A stretch of 60,962 nucleotides of DNA, filler included, from Basidiobolus ranarum (Eukaryota), in assembly GCA_040143965.1 (NCBI GenBank). It is 15 parts of 15 records of this genome, joined end to end, with 100 filler letters (N's around TTAATTAATTAA, not from the genome) between each part and the next. Parts side by side here need not be neighbours in the genome. Positions count along the whole stretch, not along the records: positions 48,880 to 52,841 come from JASJQH010009067.1; 14 more parts are not named here. The stretch is one strand, 5' to 3'. The notes below the pieces were generated by a model, which saw only the letters and a list, made by a program, of their open reading frames with translations, was not told the DNA's origin and did no database searches. How positions within the stretch are numbered: the stretch's first letter is position 1; each line of letters begins with the position of its first letter. The position numbers and the translations under genes were made by a program. This document shows positions 1 to 52,841 of this stretch, piece by piece.

Positions 1-423
1 TTGTGGGGTATCTGCCAGATAGCTGGAAGAATGTTGATTTAGCAATGTTAATACAATGATGGGCTTTGATGGAGATATTGATACAAACCTGTGTTGGACA
101 TGAGTTAAACCTAGGGTATGAAGAACTGTGTGGTAATCTTCAGGAGAATGTATTAAAGAAACTAGGATTTTGAAGGTGACAAATTGGCATTTAAGTGCTT
201 AATTTGAAAAATCCGAGTCATGTTTTTTGTGCACATGTTTATCCATATTTCTCTGAGATTGTAGCCAGTCATGCGCAACTATTTTGCAAGATCTGAAATT
301 TCACTCCTGAAACCAGAAAAACTGATTAAAATCAAATCTAACTAGATAATTTTATTTTGGTAAGCAAATGATCAATCCAAAATGGATTTAAATACAATAA
401 CAATCCTCAAATTTCTGTTAGGG
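1..423 (+). mobile_element. 3' part of dispersed repeat family X (CCC-terminated element), inserted in a copia relic
   Basis: Aligns by eye with the reverse complement of 50866-51305, 39212-39645 and 40158-40590, and with 37595-37870. Ends at ATTTCTGTTAGGG (423), after which copia pol sequence begins. Confidence 0.85.
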
Positions 424-1470: not shown

Positions 1471-3797
1471 GCTCTGATAATTACAAAAATCAATTTCATC
1501 CTGATCAAATGATTCACATTGATTCACATCAAAACAATGAAGAAAATAGCACTCTTGTGTAACCTTCAACCAAATTTTGCCTACCAAAGTGCCCAATGCA
1601 ATGCCAGAAGTAGTAGTACCATTATCCCAAATCAAGAGATCAAGTCAGATCAGAAATGGCCATGATAACTATACCCTAGCAAAAAGTAAATTGATTTGAT
1701 CCAGTTTGTATCCAACCTTGTGGATTGCAAAATCATCAGAAAACCATCACAATATTGGTAGCTTGCATTCTGCCAGTGATTTAGATGGTGATATGGTGGC
1801 TTCTTAATGTCATTTTTACAGTATTCATACACAGTGAAATATTGATCCTCATATTGGGCATGTGTTATTTATTTTCTAACAATTTTTGCGAAAATCAAAT
1901 TTTCAATTAGCAAATAAATGGTTTTACTGCTGTAGGAATTTGAATCAATATGCATGCCTTTATTTATATGTTTTAGGCTTTGTATTCTAGCCATAATGAA
2001 AATCAAAAAATTCAAGAATCTTGTCATGTTCAGTTTATACATATGCACATACTTGATTGCTCAGACACAACTCATCAATATTTATATGCCTTATCAGCTA
2101 ACTTACAATGGAAAATTGCTTAACATCTGAAATTTTGAATGGCACCAACACTTTGCAAATAACTGGCTCTTGTTACACTCACAATGAGAATAAGCTCTTA
2201 GATTTTGGCAAATTCCTGTAAAGAACTCTGCCAAAGTATTCTTAACTGAAGTCAGCAAAGGTCCTGCCACAAGTAGATATGTTGTTGCTTGAATAGATTA
2301 CCCCATAGCTCACATAATAACACAGTGTGTCTTGATTTATCTCACCAAGAAGTCTGCCATGCAGCATTCCTGCAAACACCAACAGATTATCACACAATGA
2401 AATTAGTTGGAATTATAAAGGTACTTGCTCAGTGTGCATCGATTGGATTTTTTGCTATTATTGTGCTCAAACAATGCAAAAACCTGTGTGCACATTGGAA
2501 GGAGCCCTTTGTTAGATAGATAATATAGTCGGAAGTCTTTGTAACCCATTGCATTGGATCCGTAACTGATTTTGCTAATACATTATTAATCAGATTAGCA
2601 TACAGTAATACTGACAGTGTCACATGGTGTAGTGTGGGACAGGGGTGTTAACTTAAATATACAGTAATAGAGCTTAATCCTACTACAAATCTCCAGCAAA
2701 GCTGAATTTTTATACTTTAAGCTTAAACATATTGATAGGAGTTATTCTTCACTCTATTTTTAAAGGGTAAAGACACACTATAGTATGTCAATAGCTTGAA
2801 GACTTTCTGAGAAAAGATTAATTCCAATAATAGAACTATCAAGAATTTTCAATAGTACAAGGGAAGATAAAACTATGATGGTTTCTCTATCTTGAAGGCT
2901 GAAGAAAAAGATATAGTTCTTTTTAAATTAGCAAAGACTTTGATTAACAGTAGATATATTTTTTGACTGTAAAAGTCAAGATGACTATGAAAGAATCTGA
3001 ACTGCAATCTTCTATAGTTAAGCCTAGTTGAGTTGCAATAGGAATCTTTAGTATCCTACTACAATAAAAGGTTGAATATCAAGTAAAAAAAGGGTCAGGA
3101 ATATGGTGCAGTTTTGGATGGTGCTAAGGCTTGAAGTTTTTCACTAGGGGGAAGTGTTGCTTGTTTAAAGAAATAGCTCAGAATAAATACAATGAAATGG
3201 TGGCTCAGAACTAATGCTCTGAGTGGGTGGCTTAGCATCAAAGTCCTAACAAGATCACTAATATAGCGGTTATGGCTTTGAAAATTTTGACACAGTAGCA
3301 TTCAGTACTATCACAGCTCTATGAAAAATTTGAAAAGAATCCATTTGCTGGTTCAAAAGTTACTGCTAATTTCACAAGCATCTTGAGGTCCTGAATTCCT
3401 GAATATATGCCAGTGTTTATTTTTATGTTAGCATTTTTGAAGTAGTTGTAGCTCCACCAATGATTGTTCAATTCTTACAGTTCTTGCATGGTTGCAAAGC
3501 TTCAGTTCAGAGGTTTATGATTTTGGCAGGAGTTACTGTAAATAGTCAAGTACTGCTGCAACAATGAGCAACTAATCATTTTTATTCTTTTTCTTGATCT
3601 GTAAAAATATTATATGATAGCAATGGATAATATTCTTCATGAATATTATGTGCAACATAATGTTGGAATACTTCCAACACTATAATGGAGCAGTTTTTCA
3701 CTGCAGCTGCACTCAATTGCAAACTCCCAGAATGTATAGCAAGGGCCTATAATCTCTAAGCATTGTGATAGATGCACCTGGGAATGTATTGAATACA

Positions 3798-3982
3798 TGT
3801 TGAAGTTTATTGTCTTTATCATATTTGTTACCTCTATCTTTATACACCTAACTATTTCATATATCACATATAAGTTAGTTAACATTACTTAGTCAAATAT
3901 CACTTAGCTGAAAATTGGAACATATATTATATATATATGTGAATTATGTGAGAATTAGCAATTACATATTGGAAATTTCAAA
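3798..3982 (+). mobile_element. LTR family B, partial (cut by contig end)
   Basis: Starts TGTTGAAG. Near-identical to the reverse complement of 52300-52482, and similarity stops exactly at TGTTG. Confidence 0.8.
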
Positions 3983-4082
3983 NNNNNNNNNNNNNNNNNN
4001 NNNNNNNNNNNNNNNNNNNNNNNNNNTTAATTAATTAANNNNNNNNNNNNNNNNNNNNNNNNNNNNNNNNNNNNNNNNNNNN
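3983..4082. other. Artificial 100-nt contig spacer (N44-TTAATTAATTAA-N44); first of 14
   Basis: The same spacer recurs starting at 8064, 12143, 16221, 20299, 24374, 28447, 32517, 36584, 40650, 44716, 48780, 52842 and 56903. TTAATTAATTAA gives stops in all six frames, and contig lengths never increase along the window. Confidence 0.98.
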
Positions 4083-5847
4083 TCGTAGCGAGTCTGCCCC
4101 ACCAGAAGCAGAAGAGCCTGAAAGTAAGGCGGGTAAACCGAAAGTAGCCAGAAGACCAGCTTGGGATACAAAGGGTCGTCTTGAAGATATGGAGGAGCTT
4201 ACATTCTTTCTAAAGCAACAAATCACACAATCTACTGATTCCATGTCTGATATGCACGGTAAATTATCAGATAGTGAATTGAAAATAAGAGAGTTGGAGA
4301 ACTTCCGACGTGGTTTAGAGACTAAGGTGGAGGTTAAAGAGCAGGAAAATACAAAGATTAATCTAAAGGCGTCAGATTTAGAATTCAAGTTATCTCAGAT
4401 TGAACGACAAAACGAGGATGAAATGAAATTACTCAAGTTAAAGCATGAAAATGAACTAGAAGAAATTTCCCGCCAAAAGGAAAGAATATTGAGAGAGAAA
4501 GAAGATCTCACTAATGATTTGGCTAAAACGAAGGAGCTACTTAGACAACAAGAAGACACTAATCTTCAACTTCGTAACACGATTTCATCACAATCTGCCA
4601 ACTATCTTCAGTTGGAGAGTGATCATCGTGCTATGAAAAATAATCTTGAAACCACCGAAAGTACACTGGCAAAGAGAGAATCTCGTATTGCTGAATTAGA
4701 GGCATTGCTTCATACTGCCAATGAAACAGTCGTAACTATAGAGAGCAAACTTCGTGATGAAGAAACCCAAAGACGTAAACTTCACAATACCATCCAGGAG
4801 TTGAAGGGGAATATCCGGGTATTTTGTAGAGTACGCCCATTGCTTGGTGCCGAGTTATCCGATAGTATGTCGCATATTTATTTTGCTGAGGATCAGAAGT
4901 CAATTGAGTTGAATCAATCCCAAACCTCAGCCGATGGCTCTAAAACCACCTCCAAGACATTCCCCTTCCAATTTGACAAAGTATTTCAACCATCAATTAC
5001 TCAGACCGAGGTGTTCGGAGAGATTTCCCAACTTGTTCAATCTGCACTGGACGGTTATCCAGTGTGTATCTTTGCTTATGGGCAAACGGGTAGCGGTAAA
5101 ACCTTCACCATGGAGGGGCCTGATCATCCCAATGCTGATAACATGGGAATGATCCCACGCGCGGTATTGCAGATTTACCAGACAGCCACTGCTCTGGAAG
5201 AAAAGGGGTGGAAATACGCCATGGAGGGCCAATTTGTAGAGATTTACAACGAAACCATTCATGATTTGTTGGGAACCGGAGAAATCGGTAAGAAGCACGA
5301 CATTCGCCATTTAGCGAATGGTAAGACGATTGTAACAGATGTTACTACTCTGATGCTGGATGGCCCGAACAAGGTCTCTGAATTGATGAAGAAAGCTGGG
5401 CAAAACCGGGCAGTCGCTTCTACGCAATGCAATGATCGTTCATCACGTAGTCACTCGGTTTTTACTCTTCGTTTAACAGGTAGCAATGTGCTTACTGGTG
5501 AGATATCCGAAGGAATATTAAATTTGATTGATCTTGCTGGGTCTGAGCGACTATCTTCGTCAAAGGCCACTGGTGACAGACTCAGAGAAACCCAGGCGAT
5601 TAACAAGAGTTTGAGTTCATTGGGAGATGTTATCTACGCATTAGCTAACAAGGAAAACCATATTCCATACAGAAACTCCAAGCTCACCTATTTATTACAA
5701 AATTCTCTGGGTGGCAACTCTAAAACCCTCATGTTCGTCAACATCAGTCCGTTACCCTCCAACTTTGGAGAGACTTTGTGCTCCTTGAGATTCGCAACCA
5801 AGGTGAATAACTGTCAAATTGGAACAGCCCGAAAGGTTGTCAAATGA
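4083..5847 (+). CDS. KAR3: Kinesin-14 (C-terminal motor, Kar3/Ncd-like); 5' end missing
   Basis: Coiled coil, then the neck [15 protein letters not shown]-loop GQTGSGKT, switch I SSRSH and switch II DLAGSE. Frame is open back to the contig edge. Confidence 0.93.
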
Positions 5848-8063: not shown

Positions 8064-8949
8064 NNNNNNNNNNNNNNNNNNNNNNNNNNNNNNNNNNNNN
8101 NNNNNNNTTAATTAATTAANNNNNNNNNNNNNNNNNNNNNNNNNNNNNNNNNNNNNNNNNNNNGGACTTGACTGGCTCAAAGGAAGTACTGACAGGTAGT
8201 TGTTATATTTCTGATACTTTATATACATTTCCCTAACTTTGTCTCTATAGGCAAGGAACATTTCAAATTCTTGGTCAAGTAAATACTAGTGCATTCTCAT
8301 TCAAGACCCTGCTAGCCTAGTTTGCAATTGTTTTTAATGGGATATATTCTTTTTGTCTGAACATTCTCAAAGGATGTTGAAGCCACCAGCATAGTTTTTG
8401 ACAAAAAGCTGTACATTGCTTTGTGTTTCATCAGGCCTTAGACATTTCTACAGGCTTGATTCCCTTGCAAAAAGACCCCAGAGGCAGAGACAGACCAATA
8501 TCATAGTACATCCCAGAGTTATTTAACTGTGGTTGTTGCATCCTTTGAACACTGCACATAACCCTTAAGATATTGCAGTTATAGTTGCTGCTTATGTACT
8601 AAAAAGCTACATCACAACACAGTTATATAAGTGGGCCCTGCTTTTATTGTCTAAAACTCTTGTGTTATGAGAGCTGCAGGCTTGATATAAAAGATCACCA
8701 CAAGTACAGTCACTGAACAAAGCCACCAGCTGTGCAAAGCCTGGTGAATATCAATAGTAATAAGTGCACAAAAACAACTTGAGTTTTGCCTACTGAGTCT
8801 ATTGATAATTCTTTACCTTGAATTTTGGCAACAGTGCCAAAAGTAAATACACTGTGGAGTTACCTTGAATATATGACCAGAAAGATGTAGGTAAAAGTGT
8901 AATTGTGATCAACCCAGTTAGTCCTGAAAATATTGAAGAAATGCTTCTA

Positions 8950-9660
8950 GATATTGACCTTGAGTATTCCAGTACTGATGGCCAGGCTAATCTAGCAGGG
9001 AAGATTAGGCTTTGTACCATTAAGCCTACTCAATAACCCAAAATTGCTTGGGTACTTGAAAATAGCAATCTCACAGCAAAACCAGCAAGCCAAAAGACTC
9101 TAAATGTCAGAGCAGCTCTCACTTGCAATGATAACAAATGGTTTAACATTTGGGAAACTATGAACAATTTTGCCCAAAATTATCACAATTTGAGCCAATC
9201 AGGGAGAATGCAGCTAAAGAAGTAATGAAGGAGCAGGAAGTTGGTAGGACCAAGATAAAAGCAAAGGAGGCAGTGATCTTAGGCTCTGTTTTTCTGCTTC
9301 TCAAACTCTTCACAGCATTATAAGGATCTCTATTTCTGGAGTCAGTTATACCAGCAGATGTATGGGCAAACAGGCTTGATTTTACAATATAACTGGGTAC
9401 ACCAGTTGGAAGCATGCAAAAGTCAGAAGTTTTTCTAACATCTGGCATCTGTCAGCAAGCCAAAATACAACCTTAAAAGCTCACAGTTCTCCAACTTCAA
9501 CTGATACATTTCAAAATGTTCAAATAGGCCCAAACTTAAAGGGAAGGAAAAAGCTACTCAAATACAACAAAGCACCCTCAGTAGTGTCACAATACAAGGA
9601 TTAGCAAAAATGATGAAAATGCTTGAAGGATATTTTCAGACAGAATTCAATTCTAAATAA
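8950..9660 (+). mobile_element. Repeat family X, internally deleted copy of the ORF region
   Basis: Translates NLAGKIRLCTIKPTQ*PKIAW...KPASQKTLNVRAALTCNDNKWFNIWET...AQN, homologous to 37060-37500 and 51400-52100. Boundaries approximate. Confidence 0.8.
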
Positions 9661-9819: not shown

Positions 9820-10945
9820 CACTTCTTCAGTAGGGCATTAGACATGTTCATTCAAAGCATTTTCTATTGCTTCTCTAACAAAATGATATCAATATCTCTA
9901 TGCTTTTTTCTAGCATGAAATAAAGAATTCTTAGCTAATGAAACACTACTTTGAATATGTTCAAATACAGTAATAGCACATTTTTGCAAGTATCCAAAGT
10001 CTCTGAATAACTTTCTTAATCACATGGCTTCTTGTGTAACAGGAGAGGAAGCAATATACACTGCTTCTGTAGTGAAAAGTGCTATGGATGGTTACTTCTT
10101 ACTATTGCCAATTATGGATGCTTCACCAAAGAAAGAGTGTATGTAGTTGTTTATCTCCTATCATCAAGTTTTCTTCCCCTTTCTGTATCACTGTACCATT
10201 TAACATATGTGCATGCAGAGTACCAAAATATTCTAGAACTTACTCTACACTACTTCTCATATACCAGACTATTTGTTTTACTGCAGTTTGTGCTCAGATC
10301 CTGGATTTTTAAGATATTAGTTTAGAGTTCCTACTGCAACAGCAATGTTTGCATGTGTTCAAACATCTGTATTCATAAAACTAATCACCGTGGTTTGATA
10401 AAGGAACTCCTGGCTTTGATTTAGGTCCATTTGAGCTAAATCAGATAAAATTAAGATTCTGTTCACATTGGGCTCTTTTGGCATTGATACAGATTTGCTA
10501 TTCTCCATGTTAAAGTATCTTAAGATGTCTAGGATGTGTCTGGACTGAATTAACATGATTTTTTGGTTAGGTTTAATTGTGTTGATTTGAATTTCAAGGA
10601 AATAGCATGATTCACCCATATTGATTATCTGAACTTGGTTTGATAAGCTACGTTTCATCAGATTAGGTGCTTCTAGATTATTTGCAGCTATGATCAAGTC
10701 TTCTACATACACAGCTAATGCATGGATCCTATTTCAGGTATTTTTGATGATAATTAAGGTTCCCAAATGCTGAGGGTGCCAGAATGAATCTAATGGAACT
10801 AAGCTCAGCAACTGGAGCAAATTTTGATTGAAATTCACTCCTGGAGTTTGGGAATATCTTTTTGCAACTATTCTTGCTTTGTACCTTTCTGTGGTTCCAT
10901 CAGCTTGGTTTATGACTTTATTGACCCTTTTACAGCCTATAGGCT
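9820..10945 (-). mobile_element. Degenerate Ty1/copia reverse transcriptase-RNase H
   Basis: GEPIGCK...DGTTERYKARIVAKRYSQTPGVNF, a YVEDLII (YVDD-like) motif and an RNase H remnant (STEAVYIAS). Confidence 0.85.
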
Positions 10946-11076
10946 CTCCGCCTGATGGTAGAACACTTAATAGTAAGGTAAAAATAGGACATATTCAATT
11001 CAAACAACTTAAGTGTTTAATTCATAAATCTAAATCTTGTCCTAAACATTTCCAAATCCCCTTAACACTGTTATCT

Positions 11077-12030
11077 GGTTGTGAGCCCCAAGCTAGCTGT
11101 TAAAGGAATGTATACCAGTACTATTACCAACGTTTTTACATTCACAGGGAAGTTTGATGGCAAAGCCTTTAATCTTTGTAAGTTAAGGATGGAATTGGTC
11201 CTAGAAGACAAAGATCTCTGGGGATATGCTACAGGTGAAGAAATAGAGCCAAAGGGACCTCCAGAAGCCATCCTGGCCTTTATCAAGAAGCAGAGGAAAG
11301 CACTCTCTACACTCTGTCTACATCTCAGAGACTCTGCATTGAAGGACATACAATCACCCAGATATGTCCAAATTGCCTTGGAAACACTTGAGGGACTATA
11401 TGAGACTAAGCATCTGGCCAAGAGGTTATATGTTAGGTGAAAATTATTCTCAATTCAGGCAAGTTCTGATTGTATGCCTCATCATATAAATTGGCTGAAA
11501 ACCATGGCTGATCAGCTCTCATTGATTGAAGCACCTCTAAATTAAGACGACTTAGTTACAACACTACTTGGAAGCCTGCCAGATAAGTTTGGAAACCTCA
11601 TGATTGCACTAGAATTCAAATCAGAGCTATTAACAGTGGTTGTATTGGTGCTAGGCTTTTGAATGAGAAATTAAGGAGATCTAATTCTCAGCAAAATAGT
11701 GCAGATTCGGCATTTCTTGGAGCTGTAACATGGGCAACAGGCTTCAATAATGGAGCTCCTAATAGAAAATCAATCATCTGCAAGTAATGCAAGAAACTTG
11801 GCCATTTAATCAAAGATTCCAGAAAAAGATTTGCTGAAAAGCAAAAATATGAGCAAGCCAATCAAGCTCTGATAGGGATCACCTGTTTAAGTCTGCCCTA
11901 TCAGTATGCACTAAAGAAGACTGAGCAGTGTGGTATATTGATTTAGGAGTTTCCCAGCATATGCCAGACAAGAACAATGGGTTTTCCAGCTCAAAACCTG
12001 TCCAAATAAGGAGAGTATACTTAGGTCAAG
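11077..12030 (+). mobile_element. Degenerate Ty1/copia PBS-gag-protease
   Basis: PBS-like GGTTGTGAGCCC (11077-11088); gag KFDGKAFNLCKLRMELVLEDKDLWG, LLGSLPDKF; zinc knuckle CK*CKKLGHLIKD; protease WYIDLGVSQHM (cf. WYIDSGASQHM). Confidence 0.9.
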
Positions 12031-12481: not shown

Positions 12482-12829
12482 TGTTAAAGTATTTGGGAGC
12501 ATGCTGCAAGTGGTTTGGAGAATTAGAGGAATTGATGGTTTTCACTTATTGATTTATTGAGTAAAAAGTTGACATGGATAGTTTTGTCACAGTGTAAACA
12601 AGCTAACATGTAGAATGTGTTAAGGAAGGTCCCAGGAACATGTGTGCAAAGATTGGGACTTCTAGCACAAGTTTGAAAAATCTATATATCTGAGAACTTC
12701 CAAGTTGGTGTCAATATTCTAAGTAAATACCAATTGAGAATAAGGGATAATATCTTAGTTCAATGTAAGATAACTAAGTACTAAGCTATATATGACTTTA
12801 TAGGTGTTTAGGCAATGGTAATTTCATCA
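12482..12829 (-). mobile_element. LTR family A (5' LTR of a copia element), 348 bp
   Basis: Plus strand TGTTAAAG...TTTCATCA. Homologous to 21403-21715 and 28238-28446. PBS adjacent. Confidence 0.88.
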
Positions 12830-20398: not shown

Positions 20399-20548
20399 CT
20401 ATTCATACTAAAAGGCGTAGTTTTATATGCTAAGCAACTATTCATACTAAAAGGCGTAGTTTTATATGCTAAGCAACTATTCATACTAAAAGGCGTAGTT
20501 TTATATGCTAAGCAACTATTCATACTAAAAGGCGTAGTTTTATATGCT
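20399..20548 (+). repeat. 39-bp perfect tandem repeat, about 3.8 copies, running off the contig start
   Basis: Unit CTATTCATACTAAAAGGCGTAGTTTTATATGCTAAGCAA, head to tail with no spacers. Confidence 0.95.
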
Positions 20549-21194: not shown

Positions 21195-21402
21195 AATCAA
21201 CATATTTGAAATGCCTGATTAATTTGGAATTCATCATGTATATACTATGTGATGTGTATTGTTGGAATTGAAAAAGCTGTACCTACTGGGTTTGCAGTCA
21301 GGGTGCCAGAGTAAGTATTATGTGTCATTGTATACTGCTTGTCAGAGAATATAGCTGCATAATTGGAAGGCTTTCTCTTTGGGCTAGGGTTAGGGAGATG
21401 AT

Positions 21403-21715
21403 TGTTAAAGTATTTTGGGAGTTTGTTGGAAGTGGTTTGGAGAACTAGAGGAAGTGGTGGATATCACTTATTGAGTAGTAAGTTGACATTTATAGTTTTA
21501 GCAAGAGATAAACAAGCAAACGTGTAGAATGTGTTAAGGAAGGTCCCAGGAACATGTGTGCAATGTTTGGGGCTTCTTTGAAAAATCTATATATCTTCAA
21601 GTTTCTAAGTAAATTCCTCCTAAGAATAGTGGGTGATATCGTAGTTCAATATAGGATAACTAAATACTAAGTTATATATGACTATAAAGGTGTTTAGGCA
21701 ATGTTACTTTCAACA
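21403..21715 (-). mobile_element. LTR family A copy, 313 bp
   Basis: TGTTAAAG...TTTCAACA termini, homologous to 12482-12829. No matching 5-bp TSD. Confidence 0.88.
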
Positions 21716-24373: not shown

Positions 24374-24473
24374 NNNNNNNNNNNNNNNNNNNNNNNNNNN
24401 NNNNNNNNNNNNNNNNNTTAATTAATTAANNNNNNNNNNNNNNNNNNNNNNNNNNNNNNNNNNNNNNNNNNNN

Positions 24474-25603
24474 ATTTATGACGCCTCGGTGCTCCACCAT
24501 CCCCCCTTTTGGATTGCCAGTGGAGCCAGAAGTGTAGATTACATAAGCGAGATGGTGTGAAGACAACTCTAAATTATTTGGATTAGTAGTCGGCCATGTT
24601 GTCTGCAAATTTGGATCGAGAATGGTCAAAGTGTGAGCCTCACTATTTAGTACGCTGCGTCCAACTTCATCTGCTAGCAATACCATTGGGGCGGCATCAT
24701 TCAGTATATAAGCCAGACGATTGCTAGGATATGCTGGGTCTAGTGGAACATATGCACCACCAGCTTTCAAGATAGAGAGCAATCCTACCACCATGGCTGG
24801 AGAGCGTTCCACGCAGATTGCTATACGCATATCTGGCTTGATACCCAGACTTATTAGCTGATGTGCCAGTCGGTTGGCACGCATATTTAGTTCTTCATAA
24901 CTCCATACTTGATCCTCATATACCAAGGCAGTGGCATTCGGAGTATGCATCACTTGATGTTCGAACAACTGGTGAATGCAAAGATGTTCCTGGTATTGTA
25001 TTTGCGTCTCATTCCATGTTTCTACCAAGAGTTTACGCTCAGACGGGTCTATGATGTTGATTGTATGAACAGATCTGGTAGGATCGTCCATCATCTTTTG
25101 GATACGTCTGCATTTACCTGAGCTTCCTGCATACAAGCTCGGACTAGGTCAAGCAACTCAATTGTACTTGGTTCACCCGAGAGGTCGACACGTAACGGTA
25201 ACCAATCGTCAAAACTACCACCCATAGATTCATTCACACCACGGTTGTGTTTGGTTCTTGGTATTCCTATGACAAGATCCACTTGGCCAGAGAGACGTGA
25301 GAGCACCGCACTCCAAGCAACCAGCAATATTATGAATTGGGTCGAGTCGTTCTCTTGATTCAGTAACTTGAGGGAATCCGTGATTTGTATATTAAATTGG
25401 ACCATCGACATAGGCTCAGCAAAGGATTGCTGAAGTGGACGAGGACGATCGGTAGGCAGATTTAACAGGACAGGAGCATCTGTCAGTGTTTTGTGCCAAT
25501 ACCCACTATCAGTCCAAGAAAATTTGCCATCTGACGGTGTAAAGTCAGGCCGGCGGTTTACGCGTGATGAACTGTGTATGTCATTCGAAGTGCTGGTTGA
25601 CAT
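24474..25603 (-). CDS. Bacterial-type NRPS, N-terminal part (partial condensation domain + adenylation domain), with a frame break near 25100; 3' end missing
   Basis: LNLPTDRPRPLQQSF, VIGIP, LPLRVDLSGEP; then CIHQLFEHQV, SYEELNMRANRLA, LKAGGAYVPLDPAYP and the A3 motif LAYVIYTSGSTGNPKG. Confidence 0.9.
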
Positions 25604-28237
25604 GGCTCACTTACAGTAATTAGAGTCAGAGAACCAGTATCTAGGGCAGGAGTTTCAAGACACGCGAAGTAAAAGTCAAGTGCAGGCATTCAATTGATGG
25701 ACAGCATTGAGTTAAATAGCTCATTTTTTATTAAAAAATGATCATCAAGCATTATGCATACTCAAGAAGTTTGGATGTAGAAGGGATTTGGGAAGGGGGT
25801 CGGCAGGGTGCTCGAATCAGAGTCGGATATGCTGTTTATAATTGATCCATACTCGGTCACTAGAAGAATAGTAAATTGTCAACTTCCAATTTGGTTGATC
25901 AGTTATGCTATTACGAAGCAACTGCTACAAAATCACAGGTGGGGGGAGAGGGATTGGACAGCAGCTGGTCAAGCAATCAAATTCTCTTCTTAGAAGATTC
26001 AGGACAGAACTCCGAGTCTGAGTAGACAACAGCAGAGAACAAGAAGCTATTGCGACAACTTAGGAGGCAAACCTGCTTATACTAGAAAATACCATATCGC
26101 GCAGGGATTGGCCTCCAAATGCGGTATATATACGGTTCAGAGAAACCAATTGGTGTATGGGACTACGACGAAGCTCAAGATTCACATGGGCACCAGTTGC
26201 GAATGAAAGTATATTATTAGCAAAGAATCAATTAAAATTGAAGCTTTCAGCCAATACACAGACATACAACATGACAACCTTGGAGTACGAAATCTAAGAC
26301 TATACACTAGCTACGAGCCCGCACAGTTACCACTTATATCCCTCCACATCAATGATATCTATGTATTCATTGTGTGAGGCGGGTTACTCAGTAATAGAAG
26401 TATTCTCTATTGTTCAATTGTCTCTGAATAGAAACCGTTCCGCCTGTCCTTTATGAATCTCGAGAGAAATGTTTTCTTTTGATAAAAGTTTGCTTAGAAA
26501 ATGTGATCAATATGTGTGGCCAGCATATTCACAAGTAGGGTCTTATAGTTGTTGTAGTAATTCAGCAATAGTGAACTTCTCAGGTGACTACCTAATGCCA
26601 CTGCATGTCCAAGTTAAATATATAAGCCCGTACTCTTTAGAACTGAGACATTTGGTCTCGTCGAGTAAGTGAAGTTCACGGGCTGGGTTGTAATCCGCAT
26701 TTTTACTTTCCCAGATTTGTATCTTCGTTGTGTGACGAATGAATGTTTGAAGATCAAGGATCTGGAAGCATGCGAAAAGCAGCTTTTTGCACACTCGCTA
26801 ATATCTCTACGTTAGGTTCGACATCCCAAAAAGCGTACCAATAATCCCATAAAGACTACCATGGCTCCATGCCCATAAGAGAGTGAATCTGAAGCAAATA
26901 TGACTGGTCCAAAATCAACATCACTTAAAATCCCCTTTTTGTCCCTCTTCAGTATGCAATTTGAGATATTCCATATAGCCGTCATATTCTCATTTATGGC
27001 CATTGAACAAAAGCATAGTTCAGATGGAAAAGATGACAGGGCCGGCCACTATCCTTACTGATAAGTATATGACTTTGGCTCTTTTCTGCTGAGGTCCCCA
27101 CCATACATTTACAATAACTATACAATCAACGGGCCATGGAAACAAAAAGTTAATATACAAGTGGCATTAATGAACCTCAAAGATACTTTCAAGTCGTGAA
27201 AGGCGAATCAATTCCGCCCGTTATGAGTCAGGAGTGTACCGTGTGAGTCTATGTGTGCGTACATACACAGTACATATGCATGTCTGTATTTTGTCTATGA
27301 TGAAATAAGCTTTCACATGGAGCAGAAAATCACCTTAAATTTGGATATGCATACATAAGTATATGATACTGTGATTTTAAGTCTCTTCTAGTACGTTTTT
27401 TACAATATGAAAAATCTTTGCTCATAATCTCACACATGCAGCACTAACTTGAATCGTGTCAGAGCTGGATTAGGATGAAGATCGTCGCTGATCGAAGGGT
27501 TAGGACTGTATCTGCATTTCGGTAAGTATAGCAGTCATCAATAAATCGGGGTTAGGGTTAGGGATCCATGCTTGATTAAACTTACCACAATAAACATGCT
27601 TGTTTGTTGAGTGGAAATTGGTACATTCTTGTGAGGCAATTGCCTAAACATGAAATCAATGGTGATGGCCCACCGATAATGGTCCAATAGTCACTACTTC
27701 CAGGATTAATGAATTACTTCTGTACAACCGTTGGTTAATTACATTCTATTTTGGCACGTATGCAGTTCTGTGAGATATTGACAGCCTAGATCCTTTTTTT
27801 CCACTGCGTCCAGTAGTTTAGGCTATATGTAAATAGTTCATATTGTTAGTTTAACCTTAGGGGAGGGGGTGATAAGCCCCAGAAGGCGTGATAAGCCCCA
27901 GAAGGCGTAATATGTATTTATCAATATAAACAAAGTCAATAAATAAATAAGCCAAGTTAGAATATAAAATTCAAATGCAAAGTCAAGATGTTAACAGAGC
28001 AAAGTTTCCTAGTAAGCCAGGCCAAAGAGTATTTCAGATAGGATGGAGCCAAGAGTAAAGTATTCCTAAAGGAATGGGGCCTGAGTAGAGTTTTCCACAA
28101 GGTATGGAGCTTTAGGGAGGATGAAAAGCACCATATGGTGTGGACTTTGTTTAGCATAAAAAATAATCTAAACAAAGTGACAATCAAGACATTAATCTTT
28201 TAAGATATTGTGACAATACTGGATCATACCCATACTT

Positions 28238-28446
28238 TGTTAAAGTATTTAGGTGCCTTTTGGAAGTGGTTTGGAGAATTAGAGGAATTGGTGGTTTTCA
28301 CTTATTGATTTATTGAGTAGAAAGTTGACATTTATAGTTTTGTCAAGATGTAGCAGATTAACATATAGAATGTGTTAAAGAAGGTCCCAGGAACATGTGT
28401 GCAAAGTTTGGGGCTTCTAGCACAAGTTTGAAAATCTATATATCTG
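28238..28446 (-). mobile_element. LTR family A copy, truncated by contig end
   Basis: Starts TGTTAAAGTATTT on the plus strand and matches 12482-12692. Confidence 0.88.
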
Positions 28447-36683: not shown

Positions 36684-36988
36684 TACATCTAGTTCTGGAA
36701 TACTCTGCCACTCCTGATGCACAAAATTCTGAAGGCTACAGTGATGTAGACTGGGGAAGCAATCTTGACAATAGAAGATCCACAACTGGGTACACTTTTC
36801 TCTATGGTAATGGAGCCATAACTTGGAGTAGTAACAAGCAACCAACTGTAGCACTTTCCACTACAGAAGCAGAATATATGGCAGCCTCTGTTACTACACT
36901 AGAAGCTTTGGGGTTAGGGAAGCTACTTACAGACTTAGGATACATGCAAAAATGTGCTATTATTGTATTTGAAGATAATCAAAGTTGC
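36684..36988 (+). mobile_element. Ty1/copia RNase H relic
   Basis: GYSDVDWGSNLDNRRSTTGY...ITWSSNKQPTVALSTTEAEYMA...FEDNQS. Confidence 0.92.
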
Positions 36989-37870
36989 CAACATGCTGCT
37001 CCCTCTATCCACTCTCATATGGAACTTCAGTAGTCCAGCACCAAACATATCAACATCACTTTGACAATCTGGCAGAGCATAAAATGTGTAAGACCATTAA
37101 GGGTATATAACAACCCATAGTTGCTTTGGCACATGAAAGTAGAAATCTCATAAGAAAACCAGCTAAACCAAAGACTCTGAGTATCAGAGCTATGGTCACT
37201 TGCTCTGATGAAGAATGGTTTAACAATGTTGAAACTGTGCAGAATCTTGCCCAAAATCATATTGATTTGAGCTACTTGTGGGAAAACCAAAAACTAGGTG
37301 TTACTCAGAAGGTTCTTGACTTATTTAATGTGGCTAAATGTGAATTTTTGCAAGCAAATGCCAACTATGCTATTATAGGCTGTTCATGGAACATCTCAAA
37401 AACATATTTAATTATTCACTTAGAAAAGAAAGAAAAGCAGCTAAAGATGAACTCAAGAAGCAGGAAGTTTGTAAACCCAAGGGAAAAGCAAAGGAGCCAG
37501 TGAGTTTAGGCTCTACTGTCCCACACACCAAATTATCACCAAGATCTTTATATCCAGAGTCAGATATACCAGCATATACACTGGCAAAAAGCAACATTCA
37601 AGTGATAAATGTATACAATTTGAGTTATGTTTTTTGCACATGTGTTGTTTGTAGTTTTTGGAGATTGTAGCCAATCATGTGTAACTATTTTGCAAGATCT
37701 TCAACTTCACTCCCAAAACTGAAAAAATTGATTATAATCAAATATAACTAAACAATCTTCTGAGGATCAGTAAACAGTCAATCCAAAAATTGTAGTGGTG
37801 AGTAAACAGTTAGGCCAAGATGTATTAAAAATGTGATGGTTTTCCTACAATAAGAATGCTCAAATTTCTG
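36989..37870 (+). mobile_element. Repeat family X, internally deleted copy
   Basis: QHAAPSIHSHM...DNLAE...KPAKPKTL...EEWFN...LAQNHIDLSYLWENQK...KPKGKAKEPVSLG, followed by the shared non-coding tail. Confidence 0.85.
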
Positions 37871-38079
37871 TCCTGGTTGACTATATAGGTGTTTAGGCAA
37901 TACTAATTTCAACAATTTTGACTTTGGTGACTTTGATGGTCTTGAAGCATGGGCTGTGATCAGTATTACTACAATGAAAGAGATGTTTAATAAAGATCTG
38001 ATAGATTTTTGTTTTCCATGGAGAAGGAACCTATTCAAGGCTGTTTAGACCTCACTGTAGGTATAAACTTGATGTGCTT

Positions 38080-39211: not shown

Positions 39212-40157
39212 CCCTAACAGAAATTTGAGTATAGTTATTTTAAAAAAACCATCACATTTTTACTACATCTTGGGCTAACTGTTTACTTACCTTTTTATTA
39301 TTGTCAAGTTAGGTTTGCTTTTAATCAATTTTTTTATTTCCAGAGTGAAATTTTGAGATCCTGCAAAGTAGTCGCACAAGATTGCCTACAATATAAGAAA
39401 ACAATAGATCAACACATGTATGATAACTCAAATTTTGAATATTTACTACTTGAATGCTATTACATCATCTATGAAATATCCAGTTTCCTACATATATTCT
39501 CTTGAATATTATTACAGAGTACTTCATATCCAAGGTTTAGCTCATATCCAAGACATGCTTGTATTAGTATCACCATCAAAGCCCACCAATGTACTAACAT
39601 TGCTGAATCAACATTCTTCTAGCTCTCAGGCAGATACCCTGCAATATTATGCTACTCTGTATTCTGTGCATCTGTGATATCTGCAAGGTTAACCCCACAC
39701 TGGATGTCACATTGAATATTCTTTTTCTGAAGCCACTTGTTTCATATTTGTGCTGAGTTCTTTCTTCAAACATCTGAAAATACTCTTCAATCACTTTTGC
39801 TAATATTTACATCCTGGTATCTTGCCACTACTCAGTATATTTTCTGATTTGGGCAACTCTTGGGTTGCCTTTAGATTTGGGGCTAACTTCAACACTTTGA
39901 AGAGTACCAGTTAAAGTTTGCAAGACATGAGTTTATTTGCTGTTGTTTCAGCTAGTTCAGAGGTCCCAGGTGTTGCGTAATCTTTTAAAGTTTGAATTCT
40001 TCCAACAGATGCAATTGGTTGTGTTGTGAAACAAAGACTTTTTGACAGTATATCTGCTAGTATGTCCACCTGAGGAAATGGAGGCTTTTATAATAGAGTG
40101 CCAAAATTGCTGGGTGGAACAGCAGTGCTAACATTACTAGCTCCATTGCTTTCCCTT
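39212..40157 (-). mobile_element. Repeat family X copy
   Basis: Plus strand begins CCCTAACAGAAATTTGAG; homologous to 50866-51720. Confidence 0.85.
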
Positions 40158-40605
40158 TCCTAACAGAAATTTGAGGATTGTTACTGTAGTAAAACCATCA
40201 CAAATTTGATCCATTTGGGATTTACTGTTTACTTACTGTCATAAAATCCAGTTAGATTTGATTTTAATCAATTTTTTCAGTTTCAGGAGAGAAATTTCAA
40301 GATCTTGCAAAATAGTTGCACATGATGGGCTACAATCTCAGAAAACTTTAGAGCAGCACATGTGTAAAAAACATAACTCAAATTTTACACAATTGCCACT
40401 TGAATGCTAATTTGTCCCCTTCAAGATCCTAGGTCTCTCTGATATATTCTCCTGAATATTTTTATGGAGTTCTTCATACCAAAGGTTTAGCTCATACCCA
40501 ACATGAGTTTGTATCAATATCCCATCAAAGCCCACCATTGTATTAATGTTACTGAATCAACACTCTTCCAGCTATCTGGTGGATACCACAATATCCCTCT
40601 CATGC
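40158..40605 (-). mobile_element. Repeat family X copy abutting or nested in the previous copy
   Basis: Begins TCCTAACAGAAATTTGAG inside the ORF region of the 39212 copy; homologous to 1-423. Confidence 0.82.
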
Positions 40606-41869
40606 CACAACACAAACATTCAAAGAAGCTGTGCTACTATTGTCACAAANNNNNNNNNNNNNNNNNNNNNNNNNNNNNNNNNNNNNNNNNNNNTTAATTA
40701 ATTAANNNNNNNNNNNNNNNNNNNNNNNNNNNNNNNNNNNNNNNNNNNNCTGATGCCTGACTTGCCTGAGACTCCCTATGATCATGCTCTGAATGGAACT
40801 TTTGGATTCTTCCCATATCATATTAGAGTAGTTTTACTCAGGGCAAGATTTCTACTCCAACTAAATGACTGCAGAAATCCACTGATTAAGAAGTGGCTAG
40901 CCACACCATCATCAAATGCACTATCATGCTGGAAATTGATACAAGATGATTCTCTTGTTTCTGAGTTAGCTTTACAGCTGCATGAAACAAAACAGCCTAA
41001 AATTGTTGCTATAGACTTCTAGCTAGACTCTAGGAAGCAATATCTTGCCTCCAAGACATCTTTTTTGATCTCTATTATTCCAGGTTTTTGTCCTATTGTC
41101 CATTTGGTTTGTATTGAGTATATTCCTATCTGCTTACCACCTGTGCCCCTTAACACTATATTTACATCCTCAGAACTGGATTACATTGGTCATCAAGTTA
41201 AGAATGGGTATGATCCAGTTTTGTCATAATTTCTTGGAAGATTGATGTCATGATTGTCACTTTGTTTAGATTTGTACATAAGCTAAATAAAGTCCACACC
41301 ACCTGATGCTTTTCATCCCCCCTAAGACTATACCTGATGATGCAAATTAAGACATCATCACTCTCTTGTTTGTCCATAAGGTTAACAACTTCTCAAATTC
41401 CTTTTTCAAGGCTAAATATGTTGCTATTATGAAAATGACTCATCCTCATTTTATTGAAACACCTCAAGCTATTATATCTGTCTATGATACTTACATTGAG
41501 ATTGAGTTTTTTCATACAGTCACTACTGAGGAAATTATTGAAGATAGATTGAACAGCATAGATTATTTCTTATTCTATGGGAATCACGAGCATATAGTGA
41601 TAAATTGACAAATCAAAAGTGAAGTTAATGCAGTCATGCTCTGGAACTGACACTATCCATGCCCACCAATCTACAAACGGTTCGAATGCAAAAAGTTTGT
41701 ATGGTTCAGCAAATAGCACCCTAATGCGGGTTGATTAAAGACTTCTTTGGGATTTAGTAAGAGACTAGAATAGTGTGGCTGTGATGGAGCTTGTGGATAT
41801 TATTCATCATTTCCCAAACTCTTAACTCCTTCGCTTTTCCACCCATATTTCACACTCAAGCTAGGTTTG

Positions 41870-44715
41870 ATGAATAGTTTTTTTTCAAAAGGCTGGTTAA
41901 CTTGCTCTGATCCCGAGGGATGGGTAAGTGCTATTTAAGCAAACCTGACGAATCTTCTAATCCTAGTATGTCCTATAAGGGTCCTTGGTCTTTCCGTACA
42001 TCCGACTTTACACTGTGTTTTGAATATGGGTACAACGAAACTAGATGTCTCTGCTATGTGCAATTCTAATATTCCACTCTTCCAGCTTTGTATTATTGGT
42101 TCCAACGCTATTTTTGTTTATTTTCGGAATACCCCGTTTACAACGACTTCGTCAAAATATTGAACTGCCCCAAGACTATTTAGTAAAAATTCACTACTGG
42201 GCTAAGATGGTAATGGTTGTCAACTGCATCTCCAGACGATAATTAATCACTCCTGCTTTTTGTAGCTTACCCTTCTTGCAATTTTCGGACTGAACATAAC
42301 CCTAGACGTAACATTTGCTCTGAAACTGAAGGGCAAAGGGTCTGCTTGGTGGAACGAGATCAGTATTATCTCGAATTTGGTTGTTACTCTCAGTATGGTA
42401 TGCATTTACCAAGTCTTTATCATTATTCCTTTGTTCAAACATTATTCATTATCCACCATTAGTTCTTGATTTTTATTCTTCATCGATTGGAGCATACTCG
42501 TAGTCGCAAAGCCTCATCGGTTCTCCTGCTATATTGGTCATTCAAACTTGGTGCCAATGCAATCTATCTCCGCACATTGATGGCATCCGGTTACCGCCAG
42601 AGGCACCCATCAGAATTCATACGTATTGCCGTTGTGGCTTCCCTCGAGGTACTCATCTTTGCCTTGGAGCTAATCCCCAAACATAAGCTTGATTACTTGC
42701 TTCCAGGAGAAGATGCAAATGTCTGTCCGGAGAAGTACGCCAACGTATTCTCATTGATTACCTTCAGCTGGATGAATTCACTTTTAAAGACCGGAAGTAA
42801 GAAGCCTTTGGTAGAGGAGGATCTTTGGACTTTGGAGGATCAGTATAAAGCGAGACAGATCTCAGACCAGTTCCAAGATGTATGGCAACGCGAGTTACGT
42901 CAAGAAAAGAAAGATCCATCGATGGCGTGGACTCTTGCTAAATCCTTTGGTGTTCCATTCTTGTACGGTGCATTCTTCAAAGTCCTTGAAGATATTCTCG
43001 CGTTCGTTCAGCCTCAGTTGCTGAAGCAATTGATGAGCTTCGTTGGAAGTCACTCTACGGAAAACCCTGAACTCGCCTACCGTGGCTATACAATTGCTGG
43101 TAAGTGTTCATCAGGCGTAAGTTGGGCAACGAAAACCAACTAATAGCAGTCATTGATAGGTGCCATGTTTTTAACCGCTCTCATGCAAACCATCTTTTCG
43201 CAGCAGTATTTCCAACGCTCCACTGTGGCTGGCATGAAGCTCTATGGTGCGTTGGTCACCGCTATTTATCGAAAGACCTTGGTGCTATCCAATACCGCGA
43301 GACACAACTACACAGTTGGTGAAATCGTCAATCATATGACTGTTGATGCTCAACGTGTCCAAGACTTATGCATGTATGGCAATATTGTTTGGAGTGGACC
43401 ATTCCAAATAGGGCTTTCACTCTACTTCTTGTACCAAACTCTGGGTCCGAGCATATTTGCCGGAGTGGGTATCATGATTCTATCGATTCCTCTAAACAGC
43501 TTGCTTGCACGAAAGATGCATGCTCTTCAAAAGGCTCAAATGAAGAACAAAGACGCACGTATCAAGCTGACTGATGAACTACTGAACGGAATTAAGGTCA
43601 TCAAATTGTATGCATGGGAAAAAAGTTTCCTCAGCAGAATTTTCCACGTTCGTAACGATCAAGAGATCGAGACACTGAAGAAATACGGCTACGCTTCCGC
43701 CATTCAAAATTTCTTTACTGGCTGCGTTCCTTTCTTGGTGTCTTTATCGATTTTCGGTATATACTCACTTGTTGGCGAAAATGATCCATTGACCCCTGAC
43801 CTGGTGTTCGTCGCTTTATCGCTTTTCAATCTTCTTCAATTTCCCCTCACCATGTTCCCTCACGCCATATCTGCTTTGGTCGAAGCCTCCGTAGCATATA
43901 GACGTTTATACAAATTCTTAATCTGCGAGGAATTAGACCCCGAGGCTGTTCAGCGGATTGCCAATAGCAGTGACTCAAGATTGGGCAGAGTTAACGAGGA
44001 TACTGATCTTGATGACGAGCAAGGTCGCAAAAAGTCAATGATTCAGATTCGACACGGCACTTTCCGCTGGGACAAAACTTCCCCAGTACCCACATTGAGC
44101 GATATCGACCTCTCATGCAAAAAGGGAGAATTACTCACAGTTGTGGGAAGAGTTGGCTCTGGCAAATCTTCGTTGATTTCCTCCTTACTTGGTGAAATGG
44201 AGAAGTCCCCAGCTAGCAATATTCTGATCAGAGGCAATGTAGCTTATGCGCCCCAGCAACCCTGGCTTATGAATGCTACAGTGAAAGAAAACATTCTTTT
44301 TGGACATCGCTACGACGAGCAATTTTACTGGGAAACCATCAATGCGTGTGCTTTAGGCAGCGATCTCCAGATGTTGCCAGATGGAGATATGACCGAAATT
44401 GGTGAAAAGGGAATCAATTTATAGGTGGCCAAAAGGCTCGTATCTCATTGGCTAGAGCCGTTTACCATCGAGCTGATGTTTATTTGCTTGACGACCCACT
44501 ATCTGCTGTTGATGCACATGTTGGACGCCATATTTTCGACCAAGTGATTGGGCCGAAAGGATTGTTGCAAACCAAGGCCCGTATTTTTGTTACCCATGGT
44601 ATCGCTTACGCCAAGGACGCCAATCAAGTTATTGTACTTGGAGATGGTCAAATCATCGAGAAGGGTGGATTCCGCGATCTCATGGAGAAGAGGAACGAAT
44701 TCTATAACCTTATTT
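41870..44715 (+). CDS. YCF1: ABCC/MRP transporter (Ycf1-like, with TMD0), multi-exon; 1-nt frameshift at about 44423; 3' half missing
   Basis: CSDPEGW|GPW...DFTLCF, ANVFSLITFSWMN, GEIVNHMTVDAQR, Walker A GRVGSGKS, GEKGINL(S)GGQKARISLARAVY, Walker B LLDDPLSAVD. Confidence 0.88.
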
Positions 44716-45557
44716 NNNNNNNNNNNNNNNNNNNNNNNNNNNNNNNNNNNNNNNNNNNNTTAATTAATTAANNNNNNNNNNNNNNNNNNNNNNNNNNNNN
44801 NNNNNNNNNNNNNNNTGCTTATTTTGACAGTAGCAGCAGTATCAGCAATTTCACTGATGACTATATGATATCTAACTTTAACATAGATATTACAATGATC
44901 AATTAGTAGGCAAGGTATTGCTGGCAACAAATAGAATGTTGTGGAGATGCATAGAGTAATTATTGAAGAGTGTGATAGGTAGGTGAGACTGATTGGCAGT
45001 TCTTAGGATAGTTAAAATGAATAATTGATTTGAGCTTTTAGCATATTTGATTAAAAAACTAATAATACTTTCATTGCATAGAAATGACAACTATTTTGTT
45101 TTGTTAACATGTTAGGAAATGAATGAGGAGGTTTTAGACGAGTTCAAGAACCCTATTACAATTAACAACATTTGTGAAATATATGGAAAATAGAAGTTAC
45201 AGTTATGATCTCAGTATTCAGGAAATAATGATTAAAAATACCAAATAATAAGCATAATGTAGATTTATTTTAGTGCCTAACATTAATAGTTTAGCAGAAT
45301 GATGACTCAACACTAATTATCTTATTACAGCTGAATATCAATTGAAGTCATGAATACTAAATATAGGGATGTGTTCTAAGGGTGTCTGCGGAAGGGAAAC
45401 ACGCGAATAAATTTGAATTTTATATATATACATAGTATGGATAAGGTATCAAGGGAATATATGTACACATTCTATCCTATTAAATCCTAAACACTAGTAA
45501 ATTTACGGGAGAAGGGTTAGGGTTAGGGTTAAGGTTAAAGTGCAAATTAGTGAAATC

Positions 45558-50865: not shown

Positions 50866-52841
50866 CCCTGACAGATATGTGAGCATTGTTATTCTAGGAA
50901 AACCATCACAATTTTAATCCATTTGGGATTGACCATTTACTTGTCATCATAAAATTGTCAAGTTAGATTTGATTTGAATCAATTTTTTCAGTTTCAGGAG
51001 TGAAATTTCAAGATCTTGCAAAATAGATGCACATGATTGGCTACAATCCCAGATAACTATGGATCAATGCATGTGCAAAAAATGTAACTTAAATTTACAC
51101 ATTTACCACTCAAATGCTAATTTGTCACCTTCAAAATTTCTAGTTTCTTTGATATATTCTCCTGAATATTTTTATAGAGTTTTTCATACCCAAGGTTTAG
51201 CTCATATTCAACACAAGTTTGTATCAATATCTCCATCAAAGCCCACAGTTGTATTAACATTGCTGAATCCACATTCTTCTAGCTATCTGGTTGATACCCT
51301 GCAATATTATGCCACTCAGTATTAAGTTCTTCCCAGATATCTGCACAGTCAACACCAGATTGAATGTCAACTTGAATGTTCTTCCTCTGAAGTCACTACT
51401 GAGGGTGCTTTGTGGTGTTTGTTTGGCTTTTTGCTTGCCTTTAACTTTGGGGCTAATTTCAACACTCTCAAAAGTACCAATTGAGGTTGGAGTGCCATGA
51501 GTTTTATTTGCCAGTGTTTTGACTTGTTGATAGGTGCTAGGTGTCAGATAAACTTCCAAATTTAGCACTCTTCCAACTGGTGTACCTGGTTCCATGGTCA
51601 AATTAAGCTTTTTTACCAGTATATCTGACTCTGGAAATGTAGATCTTTGTAATTGTGTGAAGAATTAGGTAAGTGGGACAGTAAAGCCTAAACTCACTGG
51701 CTCCTTTGCTTTTCCCTTGGGTTTACTAACTTCCTGCTCCTTGAGTACTTCTATAGCTGCTTTTCTTTCTTTTCCAAGTTGATAATTGCGTCCATTTTTG
51801 AGATGTTTCATGAATTGGATATTACTAGTCCAATAGCCATTTGCTTGCAAAAACCCAGGATAAGCCCCATGAAATAAGTCAAGAACCTTCAGAGTGATGC
51901 CTGGTTTTTGGTTTTTCCACAATTGGCTCAAATCAAGGTGATTTTGGGCAAGATTCCACACAGTTTCCAAAATGTTAAACCACTCATCATCAGAGCAAGT
52001 GATGGCAGCTCTGTCACTCAGAGTCTTTTGATTTGCCGGTTTTCCTACAAGATTTCTAATTTCATTTGCCCAAGCAATGTTGGGTTGTTGTGTAGGCTTA
52101 ATGATCCTATTGGGAAATTATGAGCTGTTTGGAGGAACTTGAGAAAAGTGGAGTTGTGAATAGCTTTGTAAGATAATTATTTATTGTCCAGAAATAAAGC
52201 ATTTATACATTTTTGTGGTAATAGAGAAAACTAACACTGGGTTTGTGTTCAGAACATCTGTGGGAGTAAAATGTGCTATCTTTGGGGCAATTTGGACAAG
52301 TTTGAAATTTCCAATATAATTACTAATTCACACATTATTCACATATATATATGATATGTGTTACAATTTTCAGTTAAGTGTTATTTGTCTAAGTAATGTT
52401 AACTAACTTATATGTGATATATGAAATAGTTAGGTGTATAAAGATAGAAATAACAAAGATGATAAGACAATAAACTTCAACAGGTCCAACACATATTCTG
52501 CTCTGCTAGATTGTCACAGTGGCATTCATATGTATGGTGTGGGATTGATTGAAATCCCATATGAGAATGGATGGAGGGAGCAGCATGTTGCTCTAGCTCA
52601 AGTACAGCATTTTGAAAGTCTTGTATCATTGTTGAGTGACTCTCTAACTGCTGACCAGTTGTTTCCAAATGCTGCATCAATTGTGATATTGTGGCATTAT
52701 TGCTTGTCATGGCCTGTAATGCAACTTCATAGTTTTTACTTATGATTGCATACAAATCATTGTGGTATTCAGCCTGAAATTTCCTTGTTGTAATAACTCT
52801 ATCCCAATCCTCTATGGAGGGTTGTTCAATAGTGAGCAAAG
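50866..52841 (-). mobile_element. Repeat family X, longest copy, interrupted by a solo LTR
   Basis: Plus-strand terminus CCCTGACAG at 50866. ORF pieces 52839-52483, 52102-51665 and 51601 onward share one frame once the LTR and one TSD copy are removed. Confidence 0.88.
52108..52482 (-). mobile_element. Solo LTR, family B (375 bp), with a 5-bp TSD
   Basis: Plus strand TATTG (decayed TGTTG)...CAACA, flanked by GATCC (52103-52107) and GGTCC (52483-52487). The empty site matches the uninterrupted X copy at about 37060-37100. Confidence 0.88.

Follow-up and report, generated by a model that had tools for sequence, protein, structure and literature searches.

A 5.2-kb, high-copy transposon of probable EnSpm/CACTA type with CCC termini and a second gene head-to-head with its transposase in Basidiobolus ranarum

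The DNA analyzed here, referred to as the window, is a stretch of 60,962 nucleotides from Basidiobolus ranarum (GCA_040143965.1). It comprises 15 unlinked contigs of approximately 4 kb each, which carry fungal genes and CpG-poor repeats. Fragments of a single repeat element were identified in 4 of the 15 contigs by self-BLAST and by mapping onto a reconstructed map of the element, at the places where a first-pass annotation had reported them, and cover 6,373 of the 59,730 non-N bases. The flagged segment, 50866-52841, contains one end of this element together with most of a gene, here called ORF2. The assigned features are listed below, where "map" denotes position on the element map.

50866 to 50878, plus strand: left terminal inverted repeat of the flagged copy, 13 bp, starting with CCC, at map position 1
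50879 to 51116, plus strand: left subterminal region, 3' of ORF2, with decayed ACCGTC-type motifs (element map)
51117 to 52841, minus strand: ORF2 remnant, approximately codons 107-585 of 585, with stops, a deletion and a solo LTR inside, reaching the contig end
52108 to 52482, minus strand: solo LTR of 375 bp that interrupts ORF2 and is bordered by an imperfect duplication of 5 bp
1 to 423, minus strand: left end of a second copy with its terminus at 423, map 1-434 (element map)
1674 to 2627, minus strand: right terminal inverted repeat, with its terminus at 1674, together with the 3' portion of the transposase gene, map 4245-5201 (element map)
3687 to 3796, minus strand: the same transposase piece continued, map 4137-4246, adjoined by an LTR fragment at 3795-3982 (self-BLAST and map)
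8635 to 8981, plus strand: 5' portion of the transposase gene, covering map 2247-2594 (element map)
8989 to 9638, plus strand (ORF2 reads on plus): rearranged ORF2 pieces, map 571-992 and 1142-1361, reversed relative to the map (element map)
36989 to 37871, plus strand: internally deleted copy with the middle of ORF2 (map 848-1439, reading on plus) and a degenerate left end (map 6-249) (self-BLAST and map)
39212 to 40157, plus strand: left end and 3' part of ORF2, map 1-947, 76% identical to the map (element map)
40158 to 40649, plus strand: further left end, abutting the copy at 39212-40157 at map 946 and followed by map 2207-2268 (element map)

Four copies end at a shared terminus, at 423, 39212, 40158 (as TCC) and 50866, and are bordered by unrelated flanks, as had been claimed; a fifth, degenerate terminus lies near 37871. 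Pieces of the transposase gene were found at 1674-2627, 3687-3796, 8635-8981 and 40588-40649, distributed over three contigs. The earlier statement that no DDE motif is visible thus holds within the flagged stretch but not for the window, which elsewhere carries these transposase pieces and the right terminus at 1674. Compared with other copies, approximately 90 bp are missing near 51394 in the ORF2 of the flagged copy. The solo LTR at 52108-52482 and its duplication could likewise be verified, as the insert is absent from other copies spanning the site, in which both sides overlap by 5 bp, and the duplication reads GATCC/GGTCC. This 375-bp LTR had 15 full-length matches, with the window copy counted twice, and represents a family which we take to be copia-like, other copies being flanked by a PBS-like and a PPT-like motif. 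The abundant LTR family often sits inside the transposon (window 52108-52482 and 3795-3982; L002, L084, L155, L194, L222 and L235); some of its copies retain PBS-like or PPT-like flanks, and 5-bp duplications were seen.

The complete element was reconstructed by walking outward from the left terminus through the genome (65 Mb, 13,754 contigs), and a majority map built from 126 loci and CpG-restored had a length of 5,201 bp. The ends form a 13-bp inverted repeat with one mismatch, starting CCCTAACA. The far end is a sharp second end carrying the inverted CCCTAACA and lies beyond a gene on the opposite strand. Two genes, ORF2 and a Transposase_21 (Tnp2) gene, are arranged head-to-head with approximately 210 bp between them and are the only long ORFs on the complete map. 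The map carries ACCGTCA at two positions close to either end and at one internal position, and ACCGTC-type motifs are found in both subterminal regions. ORF2 and the Transposase_21 gene are linked in four single contigs (L191, L192, L194 and L195), among which L191 spans map 70-5045 with one insertion. An insertion of approximately 282 bp was located in ORF2 at L191:5982-6263. Exact matches to the left-end 18-mer and the right-end 20-mer numbered 692 and 542 in the element's own genome, respectively, with 0 for the reversed control of the former and 0 for the control of the latter. A full-length copy with both ends and matching flanks was found neither in the window nor among 279 loci, searched with a long internal query and extended fetches; L004 holds both ends with flanks that do not match.

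The first-pass annotation had read the flagged segment as the accessory gene and one terminus of a high-copy DNA transposon. This reading is borne out, since the segment comprises the left end and second gene of an element of approximately 5.2 kb, and both the opposite inverted CCC terminus and the linkage to a Transposase_21 ORF, which had been named as checks, were found. The ORF predicted at more than 450 codons has 585 codons on the majority map, with stops at positions that differ between copies.

Copies were 75-99% identical to the map, with a median of 92.8% over 180 alignments of at least 500 bp. CG was retained at 541 of 6,791 map-CpG positions and the remainder read mostly TG or CA; restoring CpG in the map makes this count circular in part. 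None of the copies in the short-read contigs retained both genes intact, and as such contigs break in young repeats, activity of the family is still conceivable. Six of the ten proteins looked up are NCBI hypothetical proteins of Basidiobolus ranarum.

The transposase gene assigns the element to a known group. A stop-free piece of a genome copy matched Transposase_21 (PF02992) with an E-value of 1.8e-16 and 60.4 bits at a cut-off of 28.6, and the other nine of the ten pieces scanned had no Pfam match above cut-off. PF02992 was also above cut-off for a stop-free relative of 698 aa encoded on a 5,233-bp public contig. This 698-aa protein is 90% identical to the map transposase. Further matches are 25-36% identical, and the named ones among them are fungal Tnp2 proteins (25-31%), except for one labelled dynein. 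Assuming removal of a 58-nt GT-AG intron, the transposase comprises approximately 880 codons; its start codon is uncertain because the public relative begins approximately 60 codons later. A D, D, C(2)C, H(3)H, E pattern, assigned by pattern rather than by alignment to reference transposases, was found in the translation, and this pattern characterizes the CMCT clade in the sections of PMC12730594 used here. No solved relative was found for the CMC transposases.

Taken with the inverted ends and the linked second gene, these data make it very probable that the flagged copy belongs to a class II transposon, 5.2 kb long and of the EnSpm/CACTA (CMC/CMCT) type, which multiplied to well above 1000 ends in a Basidiobolus-type fungus and later decayed via CpG deamination, nesting and LTR insertion. 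A piggyBac element with CCC termini and a 4-bp duplication would likewise start with CCC, and the apparent overlap of 4 bp and the AT-rich 4-mers at the targets, TTAA being one of them, would fit it. However, the transposase is PF02992 and not of the piggyBac family, and the TTAA check proposed earlier revealed no fixed TTAA in the flanks, so that piggyBac is highly improbable and was refuted by Pfam assignment and flank composition.

Tandem and inverted terminal repeats occur in many loci, and the element termini read TTAGGG and resemble one telomere unit, as might be expected of a retroelement (Penelope-like, DIRS/Ngaro or LINE) with the shared terminus as its 3' end and the flagged ORF as its gag or ORF1. 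The complete map with inverted ends and a DDE transposase, on which no long ORF other than ORF2 and the transposase is present, speaks against this. The tandem and inverted forms of the terminal region consist of ends that landed at scattered positions in other copies. A search for head-to-tail fusions of ends within 6 bp gave 0 matches and, on the gag/ORF1 alternative raised in the first-pass annotation, no gag, ORF1 or other Pfam family scored above cut-off. Discovery of the inverted far end and the transposase led us to discard the Penelope, DIRS and LINE readings, which we consider extremely improbable. Two consecutive TTAGGG-like units, possibly a telomere-type repeat, were observed at G000:C7:59083-59108, and their likeness to the transposon ends may be coincidence.

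As no whole copy with matching flanks was found, the target-site duplication was read from nested insertions, in which an end lies in another copy and the empty site is known from the map. Among the pattern-picked termini, 22 of 71 had landed in other copies, and 126 of 292 junctions from 359 loci led into the element's own sequence. Partner junctions were sought by motif searches in three intervals, and distinct site pairs, which do not come from single molecules, were counted at overlaps from -25 to +30. Among the 70 self-target site pairs, overlaps of 4, 2 and 3 bp occurred in 7, 3 and 3 pairs, respectively, and other offsets averaged 1.08. Overlaps of 2-4 bp thus made up 13 of the 70 pairs compared to approximately 3 expected, and the 4-bp excess had a Poisson p of 1.3e-4 uncorrected and approximately 0.007 after 56 offsets. 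Two of the seven 4-bp pairs rest on positions read from the listing, which leaves 5 without them. The letters across the seven pairs were identical in three, differed by one base in one and by two bases in two, and were not compared in one; five pairs had compatible left/right ends, one was right/right and one had an untyped partner. The 4-bp overlaps lie at seven separate places along the element. In 13 pairs at non-self targets, a 2-bp overlap occurred in 3 (two of which share a junction) and a 4-bp overlap in 1.

Base composition around the joints was also biased. With motif-selected loci excluded, 41 of the 98 sites had G at +3 beyond the joint, a preference with p=4.5e-7. The mirrored C was split between -7 (62 of 254 flanks, p=0.006) and -5 (64 of 254, p=0.003), both uncorrected, a division that staggers of 4 and 2 bp occurring together would produce. 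Recurrent sites were found in the transposase gene at map 4215 (8 junctions, end type unchecked), 4307 (3) and 4327 (2), with both end types present at 4307 and 4327. They occur in L300, L301, L303, L309 and L317, and CCC directly precedes the site at 4215. Some of the junctions at recurrent sites may descend from one nested founder.

A duplication of mainly 4 bp, and sometimes 2-3 bp, is therefore likely rather than proven, and the 2-3 bp expected in the first-pass annotation are not what the junction data favor. The same element might instead be of the ordinary TRC type and duplicate 2 bp (or 3 bp), in which case the excess at 4 bp would result from a few recurrent sites, amplified nested composites and end nibbling. 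Its CCC termini match those of animal TRC elements, which have 2-bp repeats according to the portion of PMC1636069 consulted; three self and three non-self pairs overlap by 2 bp, C is equally enriched at -5 and -7, and the several junctions that recur at one site may share a founding event. Yet the counts are of distinct sites, among which 4-bp pairs outnumber both other classes even with the 5 that are free of listing-derived positions, and they come from seven separate places. We regard the TRC-type explanation as unlikely, and the 2-bp repeat of TRC elements is not clearly matched by the element, with 7 (4 bp) vs 3 self pairs and 1/13 vs 3/13 (2 bp) non-self pairs. No report of an EnSpm element with a 4-bp duplication was found in the literature searched, with Repbase Reports, most subscription papers and the supplements of PMC12730594 outside its scope.

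The ORF2 region was covered by 32-50 loci across the element map. A profile built from 10 copies was searched against 1.84 billion representatives at E<=0.001 and gave 13 matches, of which 8 are close fragments of the same family, 1 is a weaker Basidiobolus match and 1 is bacterial low-complexity noise. The remaining 3 are diverged unnamed proteins with 43-46% identity over 113-202 residues and a best E-value of 2.8e-42. Since these homologues have diverged to 43-46% identity, ORF2 is a conserved coding gene. The protein opens with a basic N-terminus and a region rich in serine and threonine; a long helix comes next, then a middle domain that is also helical, and a linker leads to a C-terminal helical block. 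The long N-terminal helix was predicted with a pLDDT of approximately 80 and is probably a coiled coil. By features, the middle domain lies near unnamed Basidiomycota Atlas clusters (0.93-0.94), and by structure near unnamed Basidiomycota, Mucoromycota and Streptophyta Atlas clusters, with TM of 0.67, 0.58 and 0.57, respectively; these neighbors are leads only. Named Atlas clusters gave no usable feature match to ORF2.

No Pfam family was above cut-off for ORF2, and the plant TnpA-associated families were unlike it at E<=1. The best PDB match by sequence had an E-value of 0.018 and was leucine-rich-repeat and coiled-coil noise. Two AlphaFold models had mean pLDDT of 47.5 and 46.1; with these low-confidence models, which lie short of the C-terminal helical block, Foldseek gave nothing at E<=0.001 and a wide structure search nothing at Z>=5, and such blank fold searches are not evidence of a new fold. 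Word-seeded searches retrieved nothing among longer proteins and otherwise ORF2 itself alone, two scans of metagenomes confirmed 0 loci with ORF2, and neither a dioxygenase nor another enzyme motif was found in it. A BEN-domain idea was unsupported by Pfam, PDB, fold and literature searches.

We rate it an even call that ORF2 acts as a TnpA-like helper, which would oligomerize via its coiled coil and bind CpG-containing subterminal motifs by its helical domain. The proposed role is drawn by analogy to plant TnpA/ORF2 because Pfam, PDB sequence and the two low-confidence folds gave nothing usable, so that DNA binding by ORF2 has neither a fold nor a family in its favor. Plant En/Spm elements carry repeated subterminal motifs. 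ORF2 could alternatively be dispensable for transposition, serving as an anti-silencing or chromatin factor or being neutral cargo, which we find doubtful though not implausible. Its unlikeness to plant TnpA-associated families, the methylation of CpG in repeats by the host and the TET/JBP anti-methylation cargo described for other fungal EnSpm families in parts of PMC12730594 would fit such a role. Against it, ORF2 is a fixed part of the element map at the coverage given above, showed no enzyme motif and is conserved to 43-46% identity, which argues against neutral cargo, and CACTA elements normally have a further ORF that assists transposition (PMC4158355).

By the features tested, the element is a member of the CMCT clade and would work like En/Spm, with Transposase_21, short TIRs, a linked second ORF of 585 codons and a duplication in the 2-5-bp range, the last being indirect (13/70 pairs). 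Duplications of 2-5 bp are given for the CMCT clade in the available sections of PMC12730594. As its termini start with CCCTA, it is not a strict plant CACTA element, and the 3-bp duplication of plant CACTA elements compares here with 3 pairs at 3 bp vs 7 at 4 bp, counted without a whole copy. Plant En/Spm (CACTA) elements, with TnpD and TnpA/ORF2, likewise combine Tnp2 with a second ORF and short TIRs (PMC4158355 and PMC1636069, in part). However, they have CACTA termini and a 3-bp duplication, whereas here ORF2 is without a Pfam family and lies head-to-head with the transposase.

The TRC elements (SmTRC1 of Schistosoma mansoni, and those of Tribolium and Aedes) are alike in Transposase_21, CCC TIRs, size and a poorly conserved second protein, with the Tribolium element measuring approximately 5.2 kb and having CCCTAG termini (PMC1636069, as excerpted). 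In the same excerpts, TRC second proteins arise via alternative splicing and the repeat is 2 bp, while the ORF2 described here forms a gene of its own on the other strand and the duplication is apparently mainly 4 bp. Fungal EnSpm, ESTA and Plavaka elements (PMC12730594) and Cryptococcus CNIRT6/CNEST (10.1101/2025.05.19.654958) share with it, in the passages seen, a DDE core that includes C(2)C and H(3-4)H motifs. The fungal CMCT lineages described there carry CAC, CATCA or TGT termini, 2-3-bp duplications and in some cases TET/JBP, in contrast to the CCC termini found here. Huge CMC-EnSpm expansions in Basidiobolus genomes, defined by PF02992 and related domains, are reported in PMC5751038 and belong to the same group, and the passages concerned give counts but not termini, duplication length or a second gene. 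The family is of high copy number, as had been proposed, but with these expansions in print the label "undescribed" is not supported in a broad sense.

The following mechanism would be consistent with these observations. Judging from its family, the Tnp2 transposase would cut at both TIRs and paste the element elsewhere. The junctions suggest a staggered cut of mostly 4 bp that is flexible, contact with a G lying three bases beyond each joint, and insertions that often hit repeat-rich DNA, the element's own sequence among it; the preference for G three bases past the joint would give rise to recurrent sites. By analogy with related systems, ORF2 may bind CpG-containing subterminal motifs and help to pair the ends, a shared two-way promoter may drive ORF2, and host CpG methylation may have silenced the family. 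We advance only tentatively that the element represents a separate fungal CMC lineage, defined by Tnp2, CCC termini, a staggered cut of mainly 4 bp that can vary between 2 and 4 bp and is set by the G contact, recurrent self sites and a divergently transcribed helper. The helical domain of this helper would define a family of DNA-binding proteins that is carried by transposons and has no name, with further members in Basidiomycota, Mucoromycota and plant-labelled clusters.

The family itself is ordinary, with a probable variant duplication length and a second protein of no named family. Its reconstruction supplies repeat libraries with an entry that covers roughly one tenth of the sequence sampled and accounts for many spurious "hypothetical proteins". 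Chapaev, a different CMC lineage, has a 4-bp duplication. Since duplication length and termini are used to classify such elements, the combination of Tnp2, CCC ends and a mainly 4-bp duplication, if true, would blur the diagnostics of EnSpm, Chapaev and piggyBac. If the stagger is indeed flexible and its target preference can be mapped, this would offer a handle on how CMC transposases engage target DNA, and ORF2 offers a candidate function for an unnamed fungal domain.

Other sequences were observed in the window. Another repeat family, 75-89% identical and outside the transposon map, occurs at 12482-12829, 21402-21715, 28100-28446, 41200-41335 and 37878-37918. Presumed Copia-type gag and pol remnants lie at 10359-11454 and 36684-36985. 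One contig starts with a perfect direct duplication of 72 bp (20399-20548), which the assembly itself may have produced. The interval 24426-25606 of a fungal contig contains what we take to be non-ribosomal peptide synthetase fragments, adenylation- and condensation-like, and exons of an MRP/ABCC-type transporter are located at 42463-44771 on a contig without a copy of the element.
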